A DNA stretch of 64,000 bases from Candidatus Thorarchaeota archaeon (GTDB lineage Archaea > Asgardarchaeota > Thorarchaeia > Thorarchaeales > Thorarchaeaceae), in the NCBI GenBank assembly GCA_963726195.1, contig CAVSBO010000004.1, positions 320,001-384,000 of the forward strand, written 5' to 3'. Both the position numbers and the translations under genes were made by a program. The notes beneath the pieces were generated by a model that saw only the letters and a program-made list of their open reading frames with translations, was not told the DNA's origin and made no database searches. Of the stretch, positions 7,683 through 14,005 are shown one piece after another (within the stretch, counting starts at the first letter, position 1; each line of letters starts with the position of its first letter).

Positions 7683-9612
7683 ACAGCGGCATCTGAGAAT
7701 CGCCCTGATCGGCAATGCAAACGTAGGCAAGAGCGCCATATTCAACCAGCTGACAGGCCTCCATCAGCATGTGAGCAACTGGCCCGGCAAGACTGTTGAA
7801 AAGGCAGAGGGGACACTGGCTCTCGGCGGCAGCGTTGTCGATGTTGTGGATCTGCCCGGGACGTACGGTCTGACGGCGAATTCGCCTGATGAGTCGGTCA
7901 GCCGTGAGTACATCACGTCCGACCCCCCAGATGCGCTGATCAATGTCGTCGATGCTGTGGCCCTAGAGAGGAATCTGTTTCTAACGCTTGAACTGCTCGA
8001 GCTGCAACCGCGGATGGTCATTGCGCTCAACCAAGTAGATGCTGCCGAGGGAATTGGCCTTAGAGTGGACTCAGTTCACCTCTCCGAGATTCTCGGGGTC
8101 CCTGTGATTCCGACAATAGGCACTCGAAACGTCGGTCTTCACACTCTCATGGAAGAGGCCATTCGGGTTTCGAATGGTCGCCAGCAGCAGTCCAATCCGA
8201 TTAAGTACAGCACTGAGTTAGAGAAGAGAATCCAAGAGCTTACAGACCTACTCGGAATCGAAGGACTACCTTTTCCGAGCCGCTGGGCTGCGTTGAGGCT
8301 TCTTGAGGGCGATGCCGAGATTGAGCGGCTAGTATATGCAGAGAAGCCCGACGTTGAGACAACTGTAACAAGACTGAGGAGCGAAATCGAGAGCCTGACC
8401 GGTCAAGATTCACGGGGTGCCCTTGCTTCAGAGCTTTACACAGTCGCTCACAGAGTTTCCTCTGAGGTCACGTTCCATATTACCGCCAAACCTACAGTCG
8501 AACAGTATGTAGATCGTCTTTCTCTGCACCCTGTGGTCGGCTACCTCGTCATGGCGCTTGTGATTGTATCAATGTTCTACACCGTATTCCTGTTGGGACA
8601 ACACCTTTCGTCGTTGCTGGATCAGGCATTCCAGATACTCAAAGCTGGGTACTATGCGTCCTTTCCGGGTGCTGTCGCAGGGTTTGTCTGGGTTGGAGTC
8701 ATCGAAGGTGTAGTTGCAGGCACAACCGTAGCACTCCCATACATAGTACCGTTCATTGTTGCGTTGTCCATCCTTGAGGACACGGGTTACCTTGCTCGCA
8801 TAGCATTTCTGATGGACTCGGCGATGCACAAGATAGGCTTTCACGGCAAAGGCTTCATCCCACTGATGCTTGGTTTCGGCTGCAATGTACCTGCTTGTCT
8901 CGGCTGCCGCATAATGGAAACAGGACGTGAGCGACTGATATGCGCCTTTGCGACGAGCCTTGTGCCATGCACTGCAAGAAGCATTGTGATCATGGGGCTG
9001 GTTGCAGTCTACGTGGGAATCGGGTGGGCTGCTGTTCTCTACATCATTGACTTCCTTCTTATTTTCGGCCTGAGTCGGCTAGCATTCAAGGTGCTGCCGG
9101 GAGAGCCTACCGGGCTAATCATGGATATGCCGCGCTACCGAAGGCCGAGTCTTGACAACACGATGAAGAAGGCCTGGGCCAACCTGAAGGAGTTCGTCTA
9201 CACTGCGTTTCCGCTCATAATAGTCGGTAACTTCGTAATCCAGCTTAGTAACGTCGTCGGATTGCTTTCCGTTGTTCAATCCTACATGAGTCCGGTGACC
9301 GTCCTATGGCTGGGTCTACCTGCAGTCACGGGCATCGTCCTCATATTCGGCATCCTTCGCAAGGAGATGACCATGATTCTTCTCGCGTCGCTTATGGGTA
9401 CGACGAACTTCGCCCTCATCATGTCACCTGTGCAGATGTTCGTGTTTGCATTCGTCGTCATGATTTACGTTCCATGCATAGCGACAATAGCAGTGCTTGC
9501 CAAGGAGTTTGGCCTTAAGAGGGCCGCGATAATCAGCATCGTAGAGGTATTGCTAGCAATCGCGTTGGGCGGCATCTTGCACTATGGGCTTCTGTTTCTG
9601 GGTTTCTCGTAA
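7672..9612 (+). CDS. feoB: ferrous iron transporter FeoB
   Basis: GNANVGKS, NWPGKTVE, DLPGTY, GFGCNVPA, VPCIAT; GTG start at 7672 after GGTGGAG. Confidence 0.93.
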   Translation: MGNEQRHLRIALIGNANVGKSAIFNQLTGLHQHVSNWPGKTVEKAEGTLALGGSVVDVVDLPGTYGLTANSPDESVSREYITSDPPDALINVVDAVALERNLFLTLELLELQPRMVIALNQVDAAEGIGLRVDSVHLSEILGVPVIPTIGTRNVGLHTLMEEAIRVSNGRQQQSNPIKYSTELEKRIQELTDLLGIEGLPFPSRWAALRLLEGDAEIERLVYAEKPDVETTVTRLRSEIESLTGQDSRGALASELYTVAHRVSSEVTFHITAKPTVEQYVDRLSLHPVVGYLVMALVIVSMFYTVFLLGQHLSSLLDQAFQILKAGYYASFPGAVAGFVWVGVIEGVVAGTTVALPYIVPFIVALSILEDTGYLARIAFLMDSAMHKIGFHGKGFIPLMLGFGCNVPACLGCRIMETGRERLICAFATSLVPCTARSIVIMGLVAVYVGIGWAAVLYIIDFLLIFGLSRLAFKVLPGEPTGLIMDMPRYRRPSLDNTMKKAWANLKEFVYTAFPLIIVGNFVIQLSNVVGLLSVVQSYMSPVTVLWLGLPAVTGIVLIFGILRKEMTMILLASLMGTTNFALIMSPVQMFVFAFVVMIYVPCIATIAVLAKEFGLKRAAIISIVEVLLAIALGGILHYGLLFLGFS

Positions 9613-9778
9613 GGCCCACGGACGCTTTTAGCTCGGGTGCTGGATGAGGTCATCTGGACCTGAGACAAGAGACTACATCTGGCTGTTGAAGTAGAGGCAT
9701 GTGGTAATTCTCACTAGCTATAAATGGAGGGCTGTATCGAGAAACTTGGGGCAACCGTCTCCGGAGCTGACGTAAGAC

Positions 9779-10639
9779 ATGGCATTCGAAGCTAAACCTG
9801 CGTATGTATTGTTGGATTCAAAACAGAAGGACCAGATTGAGAAGCTGCTGCCAATTGAGTTAGGGCTGTTCGGAGGCAGCGGCAACTATGACCCGACAGT
9901 GATTGAGAATCCCGTCGAAATCAAGGTCTTCACTCCATATGGAGCACCATCGGACAACTTCATCGTGGGAACAGTCAAGGGCCGCACTCTCGCGTTTCTC
10001 GCACGACACTGCAGAAACCACCGCATTCCTCCCCACATGATCAACTACCGTGCGAATGTGTGGGGGATGAAGTCACTCGGTGTTAAGAGAATAATCAGTC
10101 CTTGTGCGTGTGGAAGTCTGCAACCTGAGAAGATAGATCTCGGCGAGTTCGTGATTGTTGACCAAATCTTCGACAGGACATTCGGCCAAAGAAGGGACAC
10201 TTTCTTTGACGGAGGACCTGTGGCCCATGTCCCATTTGGGGATCCCTACTGTCCGGAACTAAGGAAGCTCGCGATAGAAACCGGGAAGCAGCTCAATTAC
10301 AAGGTGCATGAGAAAGGAACTTACGTTTGCATAAATGGTCCCAGGTTCTCCACCTATGCAGAGTCGATATTCTTCCACAACCAAGGGTGGGATGTCGTCG
10401 GAATGACAGCATACCCTGAGTCTGTGCTGGCGCGCGAGGCCGGGATTTGCTATTTGAACATAGCAATGCCTACTGACAAGGACGTTTACGGAACCGAACA
10501 TGTGACCCATGAAATGGTTCTGAAAACGATGGCCAGCAACATCGATCGGGTCCGCAAGATGACCTATGACCTGATTCCTAAAATACCGAAGAAAGCTACG
10601 TGCACCTGTCAGACCGCTATGGTGCACGGCCTATTCTGA
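9779..10639 (+). CDS. mtnP: 5'-methylthioadenosine/purine nucleoside phosphorylase
   Basis: GGSG, TPYG, INYRAN, GPRFST, VGMT, PE..LARE motifs. Confidence 0.9.
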   Translation: MAFEAKPAYVLLDSKQKDQIEKLLPIELGLFGGSGNYDPTVIENPVEIKVFTPYGAPSDNFIVGTVKGRTLAFLARHCRNHRIPPHMINYRANVWGMKSLGVKRIISPCACGSLQPEKIDLGEFVIVDQIFDRTFGQRRDTFFDGGPVAHVPFGDPYCPELRKLAIETGKQLNYKVHEKGTYVCINGPRFSTYAESIFFHNQGWDVVGMTAYPESVLAREAGICYLNIAMPTDKDVYGTEHVTHEMVLKTMASNIDRVRKMTYDLIPKIPKKATCTCQTAMVHGLF

Positions 10640-10650
10640 AAGGAACAGTT

Positions 10651-10688
10651 GGAGGTGAGCTCGGGACTAATCCCCAGAGCTCACATCC
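10651..10688. terminator. hairpin between mtnP and a convergent micro-ORF
   Basis: GTGAGCTC-GGGA..TCCC-CA-GAGCTCAC stem followed by CTTTGTTTT. Confidence 0.5.
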
Positions 10689-10731
10689 GGCTTTGTTTTA
10701 GTCTGGTTACTGTTGTTCAGCTGGGAAGACT

Positions 10732-10824
10732 CTACCAGTCCTCGTCAAAATCCTCGTCGTCGCTCCAATCGTCGTCGTCATCGGAGTCGTTGTCAAAGTC
10801 ATCCTCGTCTCGGAACCAGAACAA
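10732..10824 (-). CDS. hyper-acidic microprotein MFWFRDEDDFDNDSDDDDDWSDDEDFDEDW (30 aa; 57 aa if started at ATG 10905)
   Basis: Translated by hand (below the ORF-track cutoff); AAGGTGA SD-like site 5 nt before TTG; mixed GAC/GAT/GAG codons argue against simple microsatellite. Confidence 0.6.
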   Translation of the reverse strand: MFWFRDEDDFDNDSDDDDDWSDDEDFDEDW

Positions 10825-11129
10825 TGCGTTCACCTTGAGAATCCCTAAGAGTGCGTTAGGTGTTAAGCATGCCCCAGAGCCCAGAAGCCGGTGATAGGCC
10901 TGCATGATTGTGAAGATGAGAAGAACTGGCCCTGATGCGAAATCTGAGTGTTATCAACGCTGATTGTATCTTTCAGTCGGTTTATATCATCAAAAGGGTA
11001 ATATCGGGTAGTTTGAATGCACTTCGGCAGTGTCACCCACGGTCCAAAAGTGGGTTGACGGCAACGTGTGCCCAATGAGGCCAATACCCATCACTGGGAC
11101 GTTATCATGACGAGCCCCGCTTTAAGGAT

Positions 11130-11954
11130 GTGATTCTTTCGACCGAGTCTAGATCCTCATCGCGCCGCACCTACGAAGTCATTGTGAGCGGCAGGGTGCA
11201 GCTCACTATTCTCTTGGAACCGACGAAGGATTTTGAGGTCTTGGTTGAGAAGGTGGAGGGAATAAAGAATCTGGCGAGAGGTGTCTTTGTTGCCAAGATG
11301 GAGTCTCAGCCAGTAAGGGATCTTATCCAGAGCGTGCGCCACATCTCATTGAAGAAGACGAAGCGGATACCGAGGGTCAAGGACTCGGGTCCCAGTGAGC
11401 CTGAGAACAGGACGTACACAGTGGTCGCTTACAGTTATGACAGCCCATCAGCACAGCAGAAGAAACAGACACAGAGACTCGTGCGCAGGTCTCCCTGCGT
11501 TAGATTGCGGCCCGGTGTCCTTCTCTTCCCCCATCTCAGGTCCAAGGAGTCTTTACGCTATTACAGGCAGGACACGGCTCATCCTCTCTATGATGCAAGG
11601 ACGTTCGTGGAGAAGATGAAGGAAAACGGCGCCGCGGTGCGGCGATGGTCTCATCTCAGGTTAGCGGACGAAAACAGCGAGGAGCTCGTTGGTCGCGCGA
11701 TTGAAAGAATGGTCTCCAAAGAAATGTCATTGATTGAGTTGAGACTGGCCAAACTCAGAGATGCAGCAGCCACTCCGGGCGTGCCTGTGAGAAAACTGAA
11801 AGAACGATATACCGTGATGGCGAGAAGGTTCAAGATTCTCAAGGCCAACTTCATGGCAGTACAGAGTATCTGGCATCACGATACCGAAAGAGAGCTCAGA
11901 AGGACGTACAACATCCAGCTGAAGGTGAAACGTGAGATTCTAGTCTGTCATTGA
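11130..11954 (+). CDS. hypothetical protein, possible ChrB-N/PaaX-like domain plus helical C-terminus
   Basis: VVAYSY..PS....QRLVRRSPCVRLRPGVLLFP resembles the ChrB-N/PaaX pattern; very basic. Confidence 0.55.
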   Translation: MILSTESRSSSRRTYEVIVSGRVQLTILLEPTKDFEVLVEKVEGIKNLARGVFVAKMESQPVRDLIQSVRHISLKKTKRIPRVKDSGPSEPENRTYTVVAYSYDSPSAQQKKQTQRLVRRSPCVRLRPGVLLFPHLRSKESLRYYRQDTAHPLYDARTFVEKMKENGAAVRRWSHLRLADENSEELVGRAIERMVSKEMSLIELRLAKLRDAAATPGVPVRKLKERYTVMARRFKILKANFMAVQSIWHHDTERELRRTYNIQLKVKREILVCH

Positions 11955-12148
11955 CTCGACAAGTTTAGCACAAGCCGTCGTGCCGCCCGACTCTCACTAG
12001 GGCCATAACGCTGCGGAATTAGATTAGTCACTTTGACATCGCCTCTCCAGTATGGACACGCTCCAGAGTGTCTGCGCCGCTGAAACTTCTCATACGAACC
12101 AAAGGAGTGATAGCGAGGTTTTACATGAGTCCCCATGGCGAGTGCTTC

Positions 12149-12949
12149 ATGATTAGAATCGGCGTGGGTCAAACGCAGCCCAAGATTGGGGACAAAGCCT
12201 GGAACTTGGAGCAAACAAGGCGACTTCTCCAAGCCGCAGACGAGGAATCTGTCGATGTTGTCGTTCTTCCCGAGCTGCTCAACTCGGGCTATGTTTTCCG
12301 TTCCAAGAATGAGGCCAGTACCCTCTCCGAAGACATACCCACTGGACCATTCTCAAAGCTTCTTCGGGAGAGTTCTAGCAAGGGTCGGCTCATCGTGAGT
12401 GGAATATGCCAGAAGCAAGGCAATCTGACTTACAACTCAGCGGCGGCATTCGCCAATGGTGCATTGCTCACCACTTACCAGAAGCTGCATTTGTTCGACC
12501 GAGAGAGCGAGTGGTTTGCCTCAGGCAACAAAGAACCACCCGTAGTGGAGTTCCAAGGATATAGATTCGGCATCATGGTATGCTTTGACTGGGCTTTTCC
12601 AGAGGTGGCACGCATTCTGGCTCTCAAGTCTGCTCAAGTTGTTCTACATCCGGCCAACCTCGTTCTGCCCTACTGTCAGGATGCAATGAGAACTCGGTCG
12701 ATTGAGAACCGCGTGTTCACCGCCACGGCGAATCGCACTGGTCTCGAAAGGGGCGTTCAGTTTTCAGGACGGTCTCAAGTGACCAGTCCAAAAGGTGACA
12801 TACTCCTACGCCGAGGTGCAACGGACGAGGGACTATTCTGGGTTGATGTTGATCCGAGTGAAGCAGACAACAAGATGATTACGACTAGAAACCATGTTCT
12901 TAGAGATCGACGCCCGGAGGTTTACACAATACTTACGAAGACTTCCTGA
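12149..12949 (+). CDS. carbon-nitrogen hydrolase (nitrilase superfamily)
   Basis: E-K-C triad: VLPEL, YQKLHL, VCFDW. Confidence 0.92.
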   Translation: MIRIGVGQTQPKIGDKAWNLEQTRRLLQAADEESVDVVVLPELLNSGYVFRSKNEASTLSEDIPTGPFSKLLRESSSKGRLIVSGICQKQGNLTYNSAAAFANGALLTTYQKLHLFDRESEWFASGNKEPPVVEFQGYRFGIMVCFDWAFPEVARILALKSAQVVLHPANLVLPYCQDAMRTRSIENRVFTATANRTGLERGVQFSGRSQVTSPKGDILLRRGATDEGLFWVDVDPSEADNKMITTRNHVLRDRRPEVYTILTKTS

Positions 12950-13304
12950 TTCTGCGTGGATCTCTTTCGCGAGATTCCGATGCGGGATACTTGCGTGCAT
13001 TCTTTGCTATCTTGTTGATCACAGCAGTCGATGGACTGATTCCAACCGTATCGCAGAGGCGGAGCAGGTAGATCATGACATCAGCGATTTCGTCAGCCAT
13101 CGCCTCTCGATATTCGTCCTTTGCCAGTGAGCTCTCTACGTCTTCATCGCTGCGCCACTGAAAGAGTTCAAGCAGCTCTCCGATCTCGACGGCGGCTGAG
13201 ATAGCGAGGGCTGATGGCTTGTGATACTTGGTCCAGTTTCTTTCTTCCACGAAGCGTCTAATCTGAGCCATAATCTCTTCCATCGAAGGGGATTGGGAAG
13301 GCAT
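12933..13304 (-). CDS. MazG-like nucleotide pyrophosphohydrolase (dCTPase-like)
   Basis: ERNW..YH.P, EIGELLELFQW, EIADV, KIAKNARKYP. Confidence 0.9.
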   Translation of the reverse strand: MPSQSPSMEEIMAQIRRFVEERNWTKYHKPSALAISAAVEIGELLELFQWRSDEDVESSLAKDEYREAMADEIADVMIYLLRLCDTVGISPSTAVINKIAKNARKYPASESRERDPRRIRKSS

Positions 13305-13834
13305 CAATATCCCCTTTTGAGAGTCCTGTCGATTAGCACGACGCTGTACATGCACATGACTACTATGAATATAGCAACGGCGAATACTGGAATTGAAGAT
13401 TCGGGCAGCAGTCCAGCCCCAGTGAAAATGGTCATGAGAGAGTCAGTGACTCCTAGTACTCCACACAACCCGATAGTAATGCCGTTGAACATGCCGCCCC
13501 AGCGAAGACCGGCCCCCGGATTCAGCCTCCATATCTTGAAGCCAAATAGGGAGCCCGTTGAGAAAAGAATCACGAAGATGTATGTTGCAAAGATACTCCA
13601 GCGGTAGGTGTCCCACAAACCGACTGGGGTGAGTACCACCATAATGAAACCGAGAATCATAAGCACAAAGACCAAAGCCGGCCAAGGGTCACTGAGAAAA
13701 CCCCCTTTCTCTCCCTTTGTGGGTGTGACTTTCTCGGGGAATTCCTCCTCCTCAGCCTCTTCCGCCTCAAAAGAGTCTTCTTCCTCTTCAGTCTCATCGT
13801 CATTTTCAATTGGGGGTTGGTTGCGACGACTCAT
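13304..13834 (-). CDS. 4-TM membrane protein with acidic N-terminal tail
   Basis: E/D-rich N-terminus then four hydrophobic helices; stop overlaps the downstream ATG. Confidence 0.75.
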   Translation of the reverse strand: MSRRNQPPIENDDETEEEEDSFEAEEAEEEEFPEKVTPTKGEKGGFLSDPWPALVFVLMILGFIMVVLTPVGLWDTYRWSIFATYIFVILFSTGSLFGFKIWRLNPGAGLRWGGMFNGITIGLCGVLGVTDSLMTIFTGAGLLPESSIPVFAVAIFIVVMCMYSVVLIDRTLKRGY

Positions 13835-14005
13835 ACTCTGGCCTCGCGCTCTGCCCGCGACACAGAACCAGTCCGTTAAAACCCTTGTGTCCAAGCCAAC
13901 GAAGCAAATGCACGGACAGTTCCTGTTGAATCACAATCGACCTGGTTACCAAGGATGAGGTCCATAAGGCGAACTGTTAAAACAAATCGGCGCGGAGTCA
14001 TGCGT

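Follow-up and report, generated by a model that had tools for sequence, protein, structure and literature searches.

This study concerns a minus-strand open reading frame (ORF) at positions 10732..10824 of a 64,000-nucleotide (nt) stretch of Candidatus Thorarchaeota archaeon DNA (GenBank assembly GCA_963726195.1, contig CAVSBO010000004.1, positions 320,001 to 384,000), the whole of which is referred to below as the window. Extending from a TTG start codon (10824-10822) to a TAG stop codon (10734-10732), the frame specifies a 30-residue peptide, MFWFRDEDDFDNDSDDDDDWSDDEDFDEDW, that contains 18 Asp/Glu, three Trp and four Phe residues, carries a net charge of -17 and ends in Trp. The product opens with Met/Leu-Phe-Trp-Phe-Arg, the only five residues to precede the acidic tract, and continues as Asp/Glu runs interrupted by Phe or Trp until the sequence ...DEDW, immediately after which the stop codon follows, leaving a Trp carboxylate as the C-terminus. 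A Shine-Dalgarno (SD)-like site, AAGGTGA, lies on the same strand at 10830..10836, 5 nt before the TTG. The ORF occupies a slot of its own between the stop of the convergent mtnP gene (10639) and the start of a divergent gene (11130..11954, plus strand) coding for a basic protein of 274 amino acids (aa) with a net charge of +24, its conserved neighbour and proposed partner, and an inverted repeat (10651-10688) is located downstream. An unannotated hyper-acidic frame with this SD-like site, slot and downstream hairpin had been proposed in an initial annotation of the same DNA, and each of these elements was confirmed.

A stop-to-stop scan of the 2.9-Mb genome established how rarely such a frame arises: seven frames in the whole assembly reached 13 Asp/Glu per 20 residues, the microprotein was alone in having at least 11 Asp/Glu plus at least two Trp in its last 20 residues, and it was likewise the sole frame in which acidity was combined with tryptophans or with a [DE]3-W ending. 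That rarity indicated that the ORF is not a chance product of base composition.

Because profile searches proved too insensitive for so short and biased a peptide (a hidden Markov model (HMM) search of 61 genomes of the family with the peptide alignment recovered only five copies, that of the window not among them), the analysis relied on scans anchored on neighbouring genes and on a DNA pattern. Relatives were searched for with the 274-aa basic protein, the flanks of each homologue were then read for acidic micro-ORFs, and a second genome sample was added. A micro-ORF was located divergently upstream of the basic-protein homologue in all 31 of the 31 Thorarchaeial genomes with enough flank, representing at least 13 genera; in a 32nd genome (G002) a contig break falls inside the spacer, and the micro-ORF lies at the end of another contig, beside mtnP. 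The window peptide is 48-73% identical to 14 orthologues, and the Thorarchaeial products are of 19-35 aa, with an M/L-x-F beginning, W (or F/Y) every 4-9 residues and, mostly, a terminal W. Among the 48 members assembled for the microprotein family as a whole, one internal W is invariant, W is terminal in 38, and the N-terminal M-x-F is conserved, so the aromatic positions do not vary freely.

Membership of that family was defined by a length of 19-53 codons, an SD-like site, an N-terminal head that is either M/L-x-aromatic or Pro-rich, and a body in which W, F or Y interrupts the Asp/Glu runs at intervals of 4-9 residues. The window peptide has this size, SD site, head and spacing, plus a terminal Trp before the stop and an adjacent basic-protein homologue, which places it in a previously undescribed family of acidic tryptophan microproteins widespread in Asgard archaea. 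A database search with a longer, 57-aa form returned only three near-identical proteins, all with the wrong long start; a PDB profile search with the peptide alignment gave no matches; protein-atlas look-alikes were confined to unnamed 30-40-aa clusters with scores of 0.80-0.84, under the useful range; and no paper on acidic-Trp peptides of this kind in archaea was found by literature search.

The mode of sequence drift within the family is that of a coding gene. Both GAC and GAT serve as Asp codons in the window, in line with the varied synonymous codons noted initially, and in 12 genomes of one genus 5, 6 and 18 of 37 codon columns varied at positions 1, 2 and 3, respectively, with TGG codons kept and GAT/GAC drifting freely. 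Such third-position wobble, taken with the retained TGG codons, is the signature of a translated frame. The start codon is similarly constrained. In 15 loci the short start is preceded, at 5-9 nt, by GAGGTGA or a close variant, and the relatives all start at M/L-x-aromatic immediately 5' of the acidic tract. The initial suggestion that an upstream ATG at 10905 yields a 57-aa product in the same minus-strand frame did not hold: across G002, G003 and every other genus, the extension concerned (10825..10905) is either interrupted or altered. In the congeneric G002 just 40 codons are open ahead of the stop, and the residues and sequence upstream of the SD site have diverged. On comparative grounds, the short TTG start with its SD site is the conserved start of the microprotein, and the 57-aa version is probably not translated. 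Taken together, these data leave little room for doubt that the acidic-Trp microprotein is a real, stand-alone gene missed by annotation.

The genomic neighbourhood of the microprotein gene gave an indication of its likely associate. The order in which the pair lies next to mtnP is fixed in most Thorarchaeial genomes, and where the pair is found away from mtnP (G008, G023, G017 and G020) the two genes are still adjacent, the micro-ORF having moved with the basic gene. In other Asgard families an acidic-Trp micro-ORF was recorded beside the basic-protein homologue in 17 of 20 loci, in arrangements that were divergent in two families, same-strand downstream in a third, and downstream in two copies in a fourth. 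The pairing extends to remote homologues (profile E values of 1e-22 to 1e-5) on contigs from metagenomes or metagenome-assembled genomes with unrelated surroundings, seven of which (L057, L061, L066, L067, L149, L151 and L152) carry a micro-ORF upstream or downstream, while two (L060 and L064) have none and three further flanks were too short to judge. In one more family the micro-ORF adjoins a 267-aa protein of charge +36 that the HMM missed but that hhalign identified as remotely homologous to the basic protein (probability 85%, E 6.7e-6). Since the background is only one such ORF per 2.9 Mb, the co-location cannot be attributed to chance; and the combination of co-movement, rearranged pairing, remote homologues and the homologue recovered by hhalign argues for a functional link rather than for inherited gene order. 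We therefore consider it probable that the two genes are functionally linked, and the connection to the protein at 11130-11954 proposed in the initial annotation is strongly supported by this conserved and rearranged neighbourhood.

The basic protein was detected in 84 of 301 sampled Asgard genomes, with a distribution of 54/76 in the Thorarchaeial family and 17/19, 3/3, 3/5 and 2/3 in four other families, and none in three large families of the same sample (0/68, 0/28 and 0/21). Searched against 1.84 billion representative proteins, its profile returned 90 matches (representative clusters), none with an annotation, so that the family is a rare one. Members of the basic-protein family carry net charges of +17 to +42 (mean +29), complementary to those of the microproteins (-12 to -35; mean -19).

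An AlphaFold2 model of the window protein (predicted local distance difference test (pLDDT) 88; predicted template modelling score (pTM) 0.83) consists of two ferredoxin-like beta-alpha-beta-beta-alpha-beta domains (residues ~23-76 and 96-178) followed by a three-helix bundle (181-272). Foldseek comparison with the PDB ranked Escherichia coli PaaX (8a39; E 0.011, TM 0.26) first and the PaaX-like Rv0674 (3kfw; E 0.031) fifth, both of them weak matches. In the ESM Atlas the nearest structures were unnamed Thorarchaeota and Bathyarchaeota clusters (TM 0.86 and 0.75), followed by ChrB_N/PaaX_M clusters (TM 0.43-0.51 by query, 0.55-0.67 by target). When residues 17-182 were submitted to VIA-align, only generic ferredoxin-like matches resulted: the best (Z 6.8) was an unrelated protein, and Cas2 (8ia4_A: Z 5.6, root-mean-square deviation 2.7, 71 residues; SSO8090: Z 5.2) and Rv0674 (Z 4.9) fell within the generic-match range. 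The list for the whole protein was dominated by spectrin-like three-helix bundles (Z no higher than 11.8), under the helical-bundle threshold. Neither the window protein nor 16 family members searched at E <=1 gave a credible Pfam match; PF20229 (ChrB_N) and PF20803 (PaaX_M) were among the families not matched by those 16, and PF20229 had no match in the genome. A PDB profile search produced coiled-coil noise only, and no eukaryotic counterpart of the protein was detected.

An alignment of the 16 sequences indicated that the invariant and near-invariant residues are mostly Gln, Arg or Lys (Q110, R116, R127, R137, K139 and R172), together with the aromatic F133, W248 and Y260. No invariant or near-invariant acidic residue occurs in the Cas2-like domain (96-180), the near-invariant D251 of the helical bundle being the sole exception to the absence of conserved acidic residues. 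With no such residue in that domain and no sequence match, the protein is described here by shape: on the model it has a putative resemblance to ChrB_N/PaaX_M, which does not amount to family membership, and the alignment suggests that it is not a nuclease.

Beside the gene, its conservation, its start site, its neighbourhood link, the fold of the partner and the complementarity of charge, all of which are observed, we infer direct binding and mimicry: the peptide, a disordered polyanion, may bind the basic protein as a ligand or in imitation of nucleic acid, a reading to which roughly even chances are assigned. On this model the 30-residue disordered polyanion would bind the 274-aa protein directly, its acidic runs lying along the conserved Q110, R116, R127, R137, K139 and R172, while its Trp and Phe side chains and the carboxylate of the C-terminal Trp would be anchored near F133, W248 and Y260. 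In this scheme the peptide would pose as nucleic acid or a similar polyanion, and the ligand-binding surface of the basic protein would thereby be masked, chaperoned or switched. The nucleic-acid mimic or adaptor envisaged in the initial annotation is accordingly still a plausible mechanism. A complex prediction for the 274-aa protein and the 30-aa peptide, both supplied as alignments, scored 0.01 against a mark of 0.32, and tells neither for nor against binding.

By analogy, the closest counterparts in working principle would be DSS1/Sem1 and CSNAP, the prothymosin-alpha/linker histone H1 pair, aromatic-ended acidic docking tails, and DNA-mimic proteins. Like the microprotein, DSS1/Sem1 (PF05160) and CSNAP are very small, disordered and Asp/Glu-rich with a few conserved Trp/Phe residues, and DSS1 probably works by lying along basic grooves of its partners and, in the case of RPA, by imitating single-stranded DNA. 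The microprotein is, however, unrelated to DSS1/Sem1 in sequence and under half its length (30 as against ~60-90 aa), and whereas DSS1/Sem1 has two acidic-aromatic sites and a C-terminal helix, the microprotein has no such helix, is acidic to the last residue before its Trp end, and is encoded beside a proposed dedicated basic partner with no detected eukaryotic homologue. Prothymosin-alpha and H1 form an oppositely charged disordered pair, and their likeness to the present one lies in the matching of high negative charge on a small protein by high positive charge on its companion (~-17 and +24 here); the charge-driven role of chaperone or competitor is by analogy a natural model. Here, though, the basic partner is predicted to be folded (pLDDT 88), the pairing itself is putative, and prothymosin-alpha lacks the regularly spaced aromatic anchors of the microprotein.

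Bacterial SSB, phage T7 gp2.5 and the ribosomal stalk aP1/P1-P2 tails likewise combine an acidic run with a terminal or near-terminal aromatic residue, and such tails act as docking peptides that compete with nucleic acid. They are tails of larger proteins that end in Phe, or in Leu/Phe within a hydrophobic patch, whereas the microprotein is a whole gene product ending in Trp. The DNA mimics Ocr, ArdA and DMP19, from phages and bacteria, are acidic too, and take up the surface with which a basic target contacts nucleic acid; they are, however, folded, at least some 100 residues long and charged in a pattern that mirrors B-DNA, whereas the microprotein is a 30-residue disordered peptide from a conserved chromosomal locus. 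On the side of the putative partner, ChrB_N (PF20229) and PaaX_M-PaaX_C may share with the basic protein a ferredoxin-like (Cas2-like) domain followed by a helical bundle, but the latter has no HMM match, no winged-helix DNA-binding domain and no rhodanese-like ChrB_C, bears a much higher net charge, and begins with a second ferredoxin-like domain.

Several observations weigh against the peptide acting as a dedicated ligand of the basic protein. The net charges of the two products are uncorrelated over 48 pairs (Spearman -0.02), and no sequence family was matched by the basic protein in any profile search run. The interval between mtnP and CN_hydrolase retains a related 'type B' microprotein in two Thorarchaeial genera (g4 and g5) where the basic protein was found in none of five genomes each. 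A DNA pattern of [DE]3-W followed 9-24 nt later by [DE]2-W matched 172 of the 301 Asgard genomes, as against ~17 matches in all for the reversed pattern used as a control, and the genomes matched included 41/68 and 17/21 of two families without the basic protein (0/68 and 0/21). The occurrence of acidic-Trp ORFs in its absence implies that the peptide class is independent of the basic partner.

The same occurrence supports the leading rival explanation, in which the peptide is a general adaptor or mimic acting mainly on some other widely conserved basic target, the basic protein being one client, a regulator or a co-regulated gene; a target in the translation apparatus, with the peptide imitating the acidic stalk tail on ABCE1 or translational GTPases, or among chromatin proteins would be a candidate. 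This is a serious alternative, although we judge it considerably less probable. In its favour, a remote archaeal contig (L067:2501-5570) has the order CGI-121, basic-protein homologue, 37-aa Glu/Trp micro-ORF, ABCE1, the last gene being identified by its Fer4_RLI, Fer4 and two ABC_tran domains, and ABCE1 is a known client of the ribosomal stalk tail. In the window's genome, however, ABCE1 is located on another contig, the basic protein is the only constant neighbour of the micro-ORF in Thorarchaeota and four other Asgard families, and the microproteins found without it often have a Lys-rich N-terminus of their own, a sequence feature that suggests they may be a different subfamily. As an observation in its own right, the gene order of L067 ties the microprotein/basic-protein module to a ribosome-recycling gene in that lineage.

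The micro-ORFs found beyond the pair were of several kinds. Type B products are of 23-51 aa, with a VEW-x3-W-G-D-x-W core and a DDDW ending, and their genes lie in the interval bounded by CN_hydrolase on one side and the basic gene (or mtnP) on the other, as at L005:456-575 (+), L007:2307-2411 (-), L014:1276-1410 (+), L016:2274-2369 (-), L031:1288-1443 (+), L046:882-1007 (+) and L048:1174-1275 (+). Some Thorarchaeial genomes carry both types; type B is absent from the window's genome. Loci with pattern matches were fetched from other families, including that with 17/21 but none from that with 41/68, and often contained micro-ORFs whose head is Lys-rich and which lack a basic neighbour, or sometimes the acidic tails of ~290-aa proteins. 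In one further Asgard family, proteins of ~285-300 aa with net charges of -30 to -42 carry an acidic-Trp tail after a conserved LGYLLAPMQPE segment (L134:688-1575, L136:646-1548, L138:1483-2406, L141:649-1554 and L145:676-1548), and the motif thus also exists as the tail of a larger protein. Separate Lys-rich micro-ORFs (M-A-K-K-K... type, ~20-30 aa) accompany the acidic micro-ORF in several lineages, at L012:2619-2771 (+), L015:2694-2846 (+), L098:2728-2799 (+), L101:405-476 (-), L103:1276-1416 (-), L113:2407-2520 (+) and L117:2443-2553 (+). No Lys-rich small ORF was found at 9000-13500 of the window or in Thorarchaeial loci L003-L008, L013, L014 and L016, and its presence in some loci only marks it as an optional component.

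A toxin-antitoxin-like or defence pair, in which the basic protein would be a nuclease-type toxin with a Cas2/VapD fold and the acidic peptide its inhibitor, is improbable. A small acidic gene does adjoin a larger basic one, and the second ferredoxin-like domain aligns weakly with Cas2 (8ia4_A and SSO8090), but at Z values (5.6 and 5.2) within a range topped, as described above, by an unrelated protein. There is no invariant acidic residue in the first strand or elsewhere in the 16-sequence alignment, save the near-invariant D251, and the metal-binding Asp with which strand 1 ends in Cas2/VapD nucleases has no conserved equivalent, which leaves a nuclease identity of this kind unsupported. The locus is single-copy and vertically conserved on the chromosome between mtnP and CN_hydrolase across the whole family, no mobile-element genes lie nearby, and the genes are mostly divergent rather than co-transcribed. 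Their divergence both here and in 31 Thorarchaeial genomes, with the fixed synteny, speaks against a type II toxin-antitoxin module, and the initial proposal of such a pair, whose partner lacks conserved catalytic acidic residues, is likewise not supported.

It is very improbable that the ORF has no functional protein product and represents a cis-regulatory leader or upstream ORF sensing Asp or Trp charging, a DNA/RNA repeat element, or the precursor of a modified or metal-binding peptide. Its composition is low-complexity and GAY-rich, the coding sequence contains direct repeats, and Trp codons are a classic attenuation signal. Conservation operates, however, at the level of the peptide, GAT/GAC drifting while TGG, the stop directly after W and the start context are kept, and other families place the micro-ORF downstream of its neighbour rather than before it. 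A leader peptide was also rejected because the gene converges on mtnP and has no gene downstream on its own strand, and a ribosomally synthesised and post-translationally modified or metal-binding peptide because no modifying enzyme, exporter or signal peptide is present nearby.

Least probable of all is an archaeal orthologue of DSS1/Sem1 or CSNAP from PCI complexes, or a WASP/WAVE-type acidic-Trp tail for an Arp2/3-like complex, for which the shared grammar of acidic run plus Trp/Phe and the Asgard host are the only support: PF05160 matched neither 15 members of the peptide family (E <=10) nor the six-frame genome (E <=1), the whole product is an acidic tract preceded by five residues, with no WH2 (V) or connector (C) region to make up a VCA tail, and the protein to which a conserved neighbourhood links it has no detected eukaryotic counterpart. 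Of the interpretation offered in the initial annotation, the gene, its aromatic residues and its link to the basic protein therefore stand, with the short start in place of the longer form, while kinship with DSS1/Sem1, a WASP-type tail, a missed eukaryotic-like protein and a toxin/antitoxin pair are not supported.

Returning to the peptide as a putative ligand of the basic protein, a broader conjecture, which we rate as unlikely, is that acidic-Trp microproteins constitute an ancient and general archaeal class of free-standing 'docking tails', genetically separate polyanions whose mimicry regulates strongly basic proteins that bind nucleic acids or ribosomes; on the same unlikely footing, the clients would include the ChrB_N-like protein here and factors around ABCE1 in other lineages. 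Were this to be so, the acidic-plus-aromatic grammar of DSS1, stalk tails, activation domains and histone chaperones would already exist as stand-alone genes in the archaeal relatives of eukaryotes. If the peptide binds and controls the basic protein, the two genes would make up a new regulatory module and provide a first functional handle on an unannotated family of 90 representative clusters. Experimentally the system is simple: the peptide, at 30 residues, can be made synthetically and fluoresces through its own Trp residues, and the fold of the 274-aa protein is predicted with confidence. Although invisible to standard annotation, the microprotein gene is among the most consistently conserved features of the locus across Asgard archaea, and the case demonstrates how many conserved microproteins with extreme compositions escape notice when ORFs are filtered by length and for low complexity.

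The non-coding elements around the gene are in keeping with a separate transcription unit. A TATA-like box, CTTAACACCTAA (10856..10867, minus strand), lies ~32-45 nt upstream of the start codon and may function as a promoter; it is kept in all three congeneric genomes, while the stretch between box and SD site has diverged, and in 16 loci a CTTAAC/TTTAGA/TTTTAC box occurs ~40-47 nt before the start codon, where an archaeal TATA box serving a short leader is expected. Downstream, where mtnP and the microprotein gene converge, lies a GC-rich inverted repeat (10651..10688) that is terminator-like in both directions, with 15-nt arms at 10651-10665 and 10674-10688 that are 87% complementary and begin 44 nt from the microprotein stop; a terminator-like site was called there on the plus strand, and other loci have hairpins of different sequence at the equivalent place 3' of the stop. 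In the divergent spacer between the microprotein and basic-protein genes (10825..11129), comparison of the congeneric G000 and G003 revealed conserved blocks, including TTTATAT/AAAAGGTAATATC and AGTGTCAC, which could be the promoter of the basic gene and an operator.

In most Thorarchaeial genomes the module is flanked, as in the window, by the phosphorylase gene mtnP (PNP_UDP_1/MTAP-type; 9779-10639, plus strand) and by a CN_hydrolase gene, possibly for an omega-amidase (12068-12949, plus strand). A joint role for these two genes in methionine salvage is possible, with the microprotein/basic-protein pair as an insertion between them. Further along the window, a 196-aa ORF (13304-13894, minus strand) has no Pfam match and consists of an acidic N-terminal stretch (~15 D/E in 20) followed by apparently hydrophobic segments; it is conserved beside a MazG-like gene in the related contig L020. 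Outside the window, a ~3-kb A-rich low-complexity stretch (G000:C3:394039-396895) contains long poly-Lys stretches in all three plus-strand frames and may be an assembly artefact or an unusual repeat.

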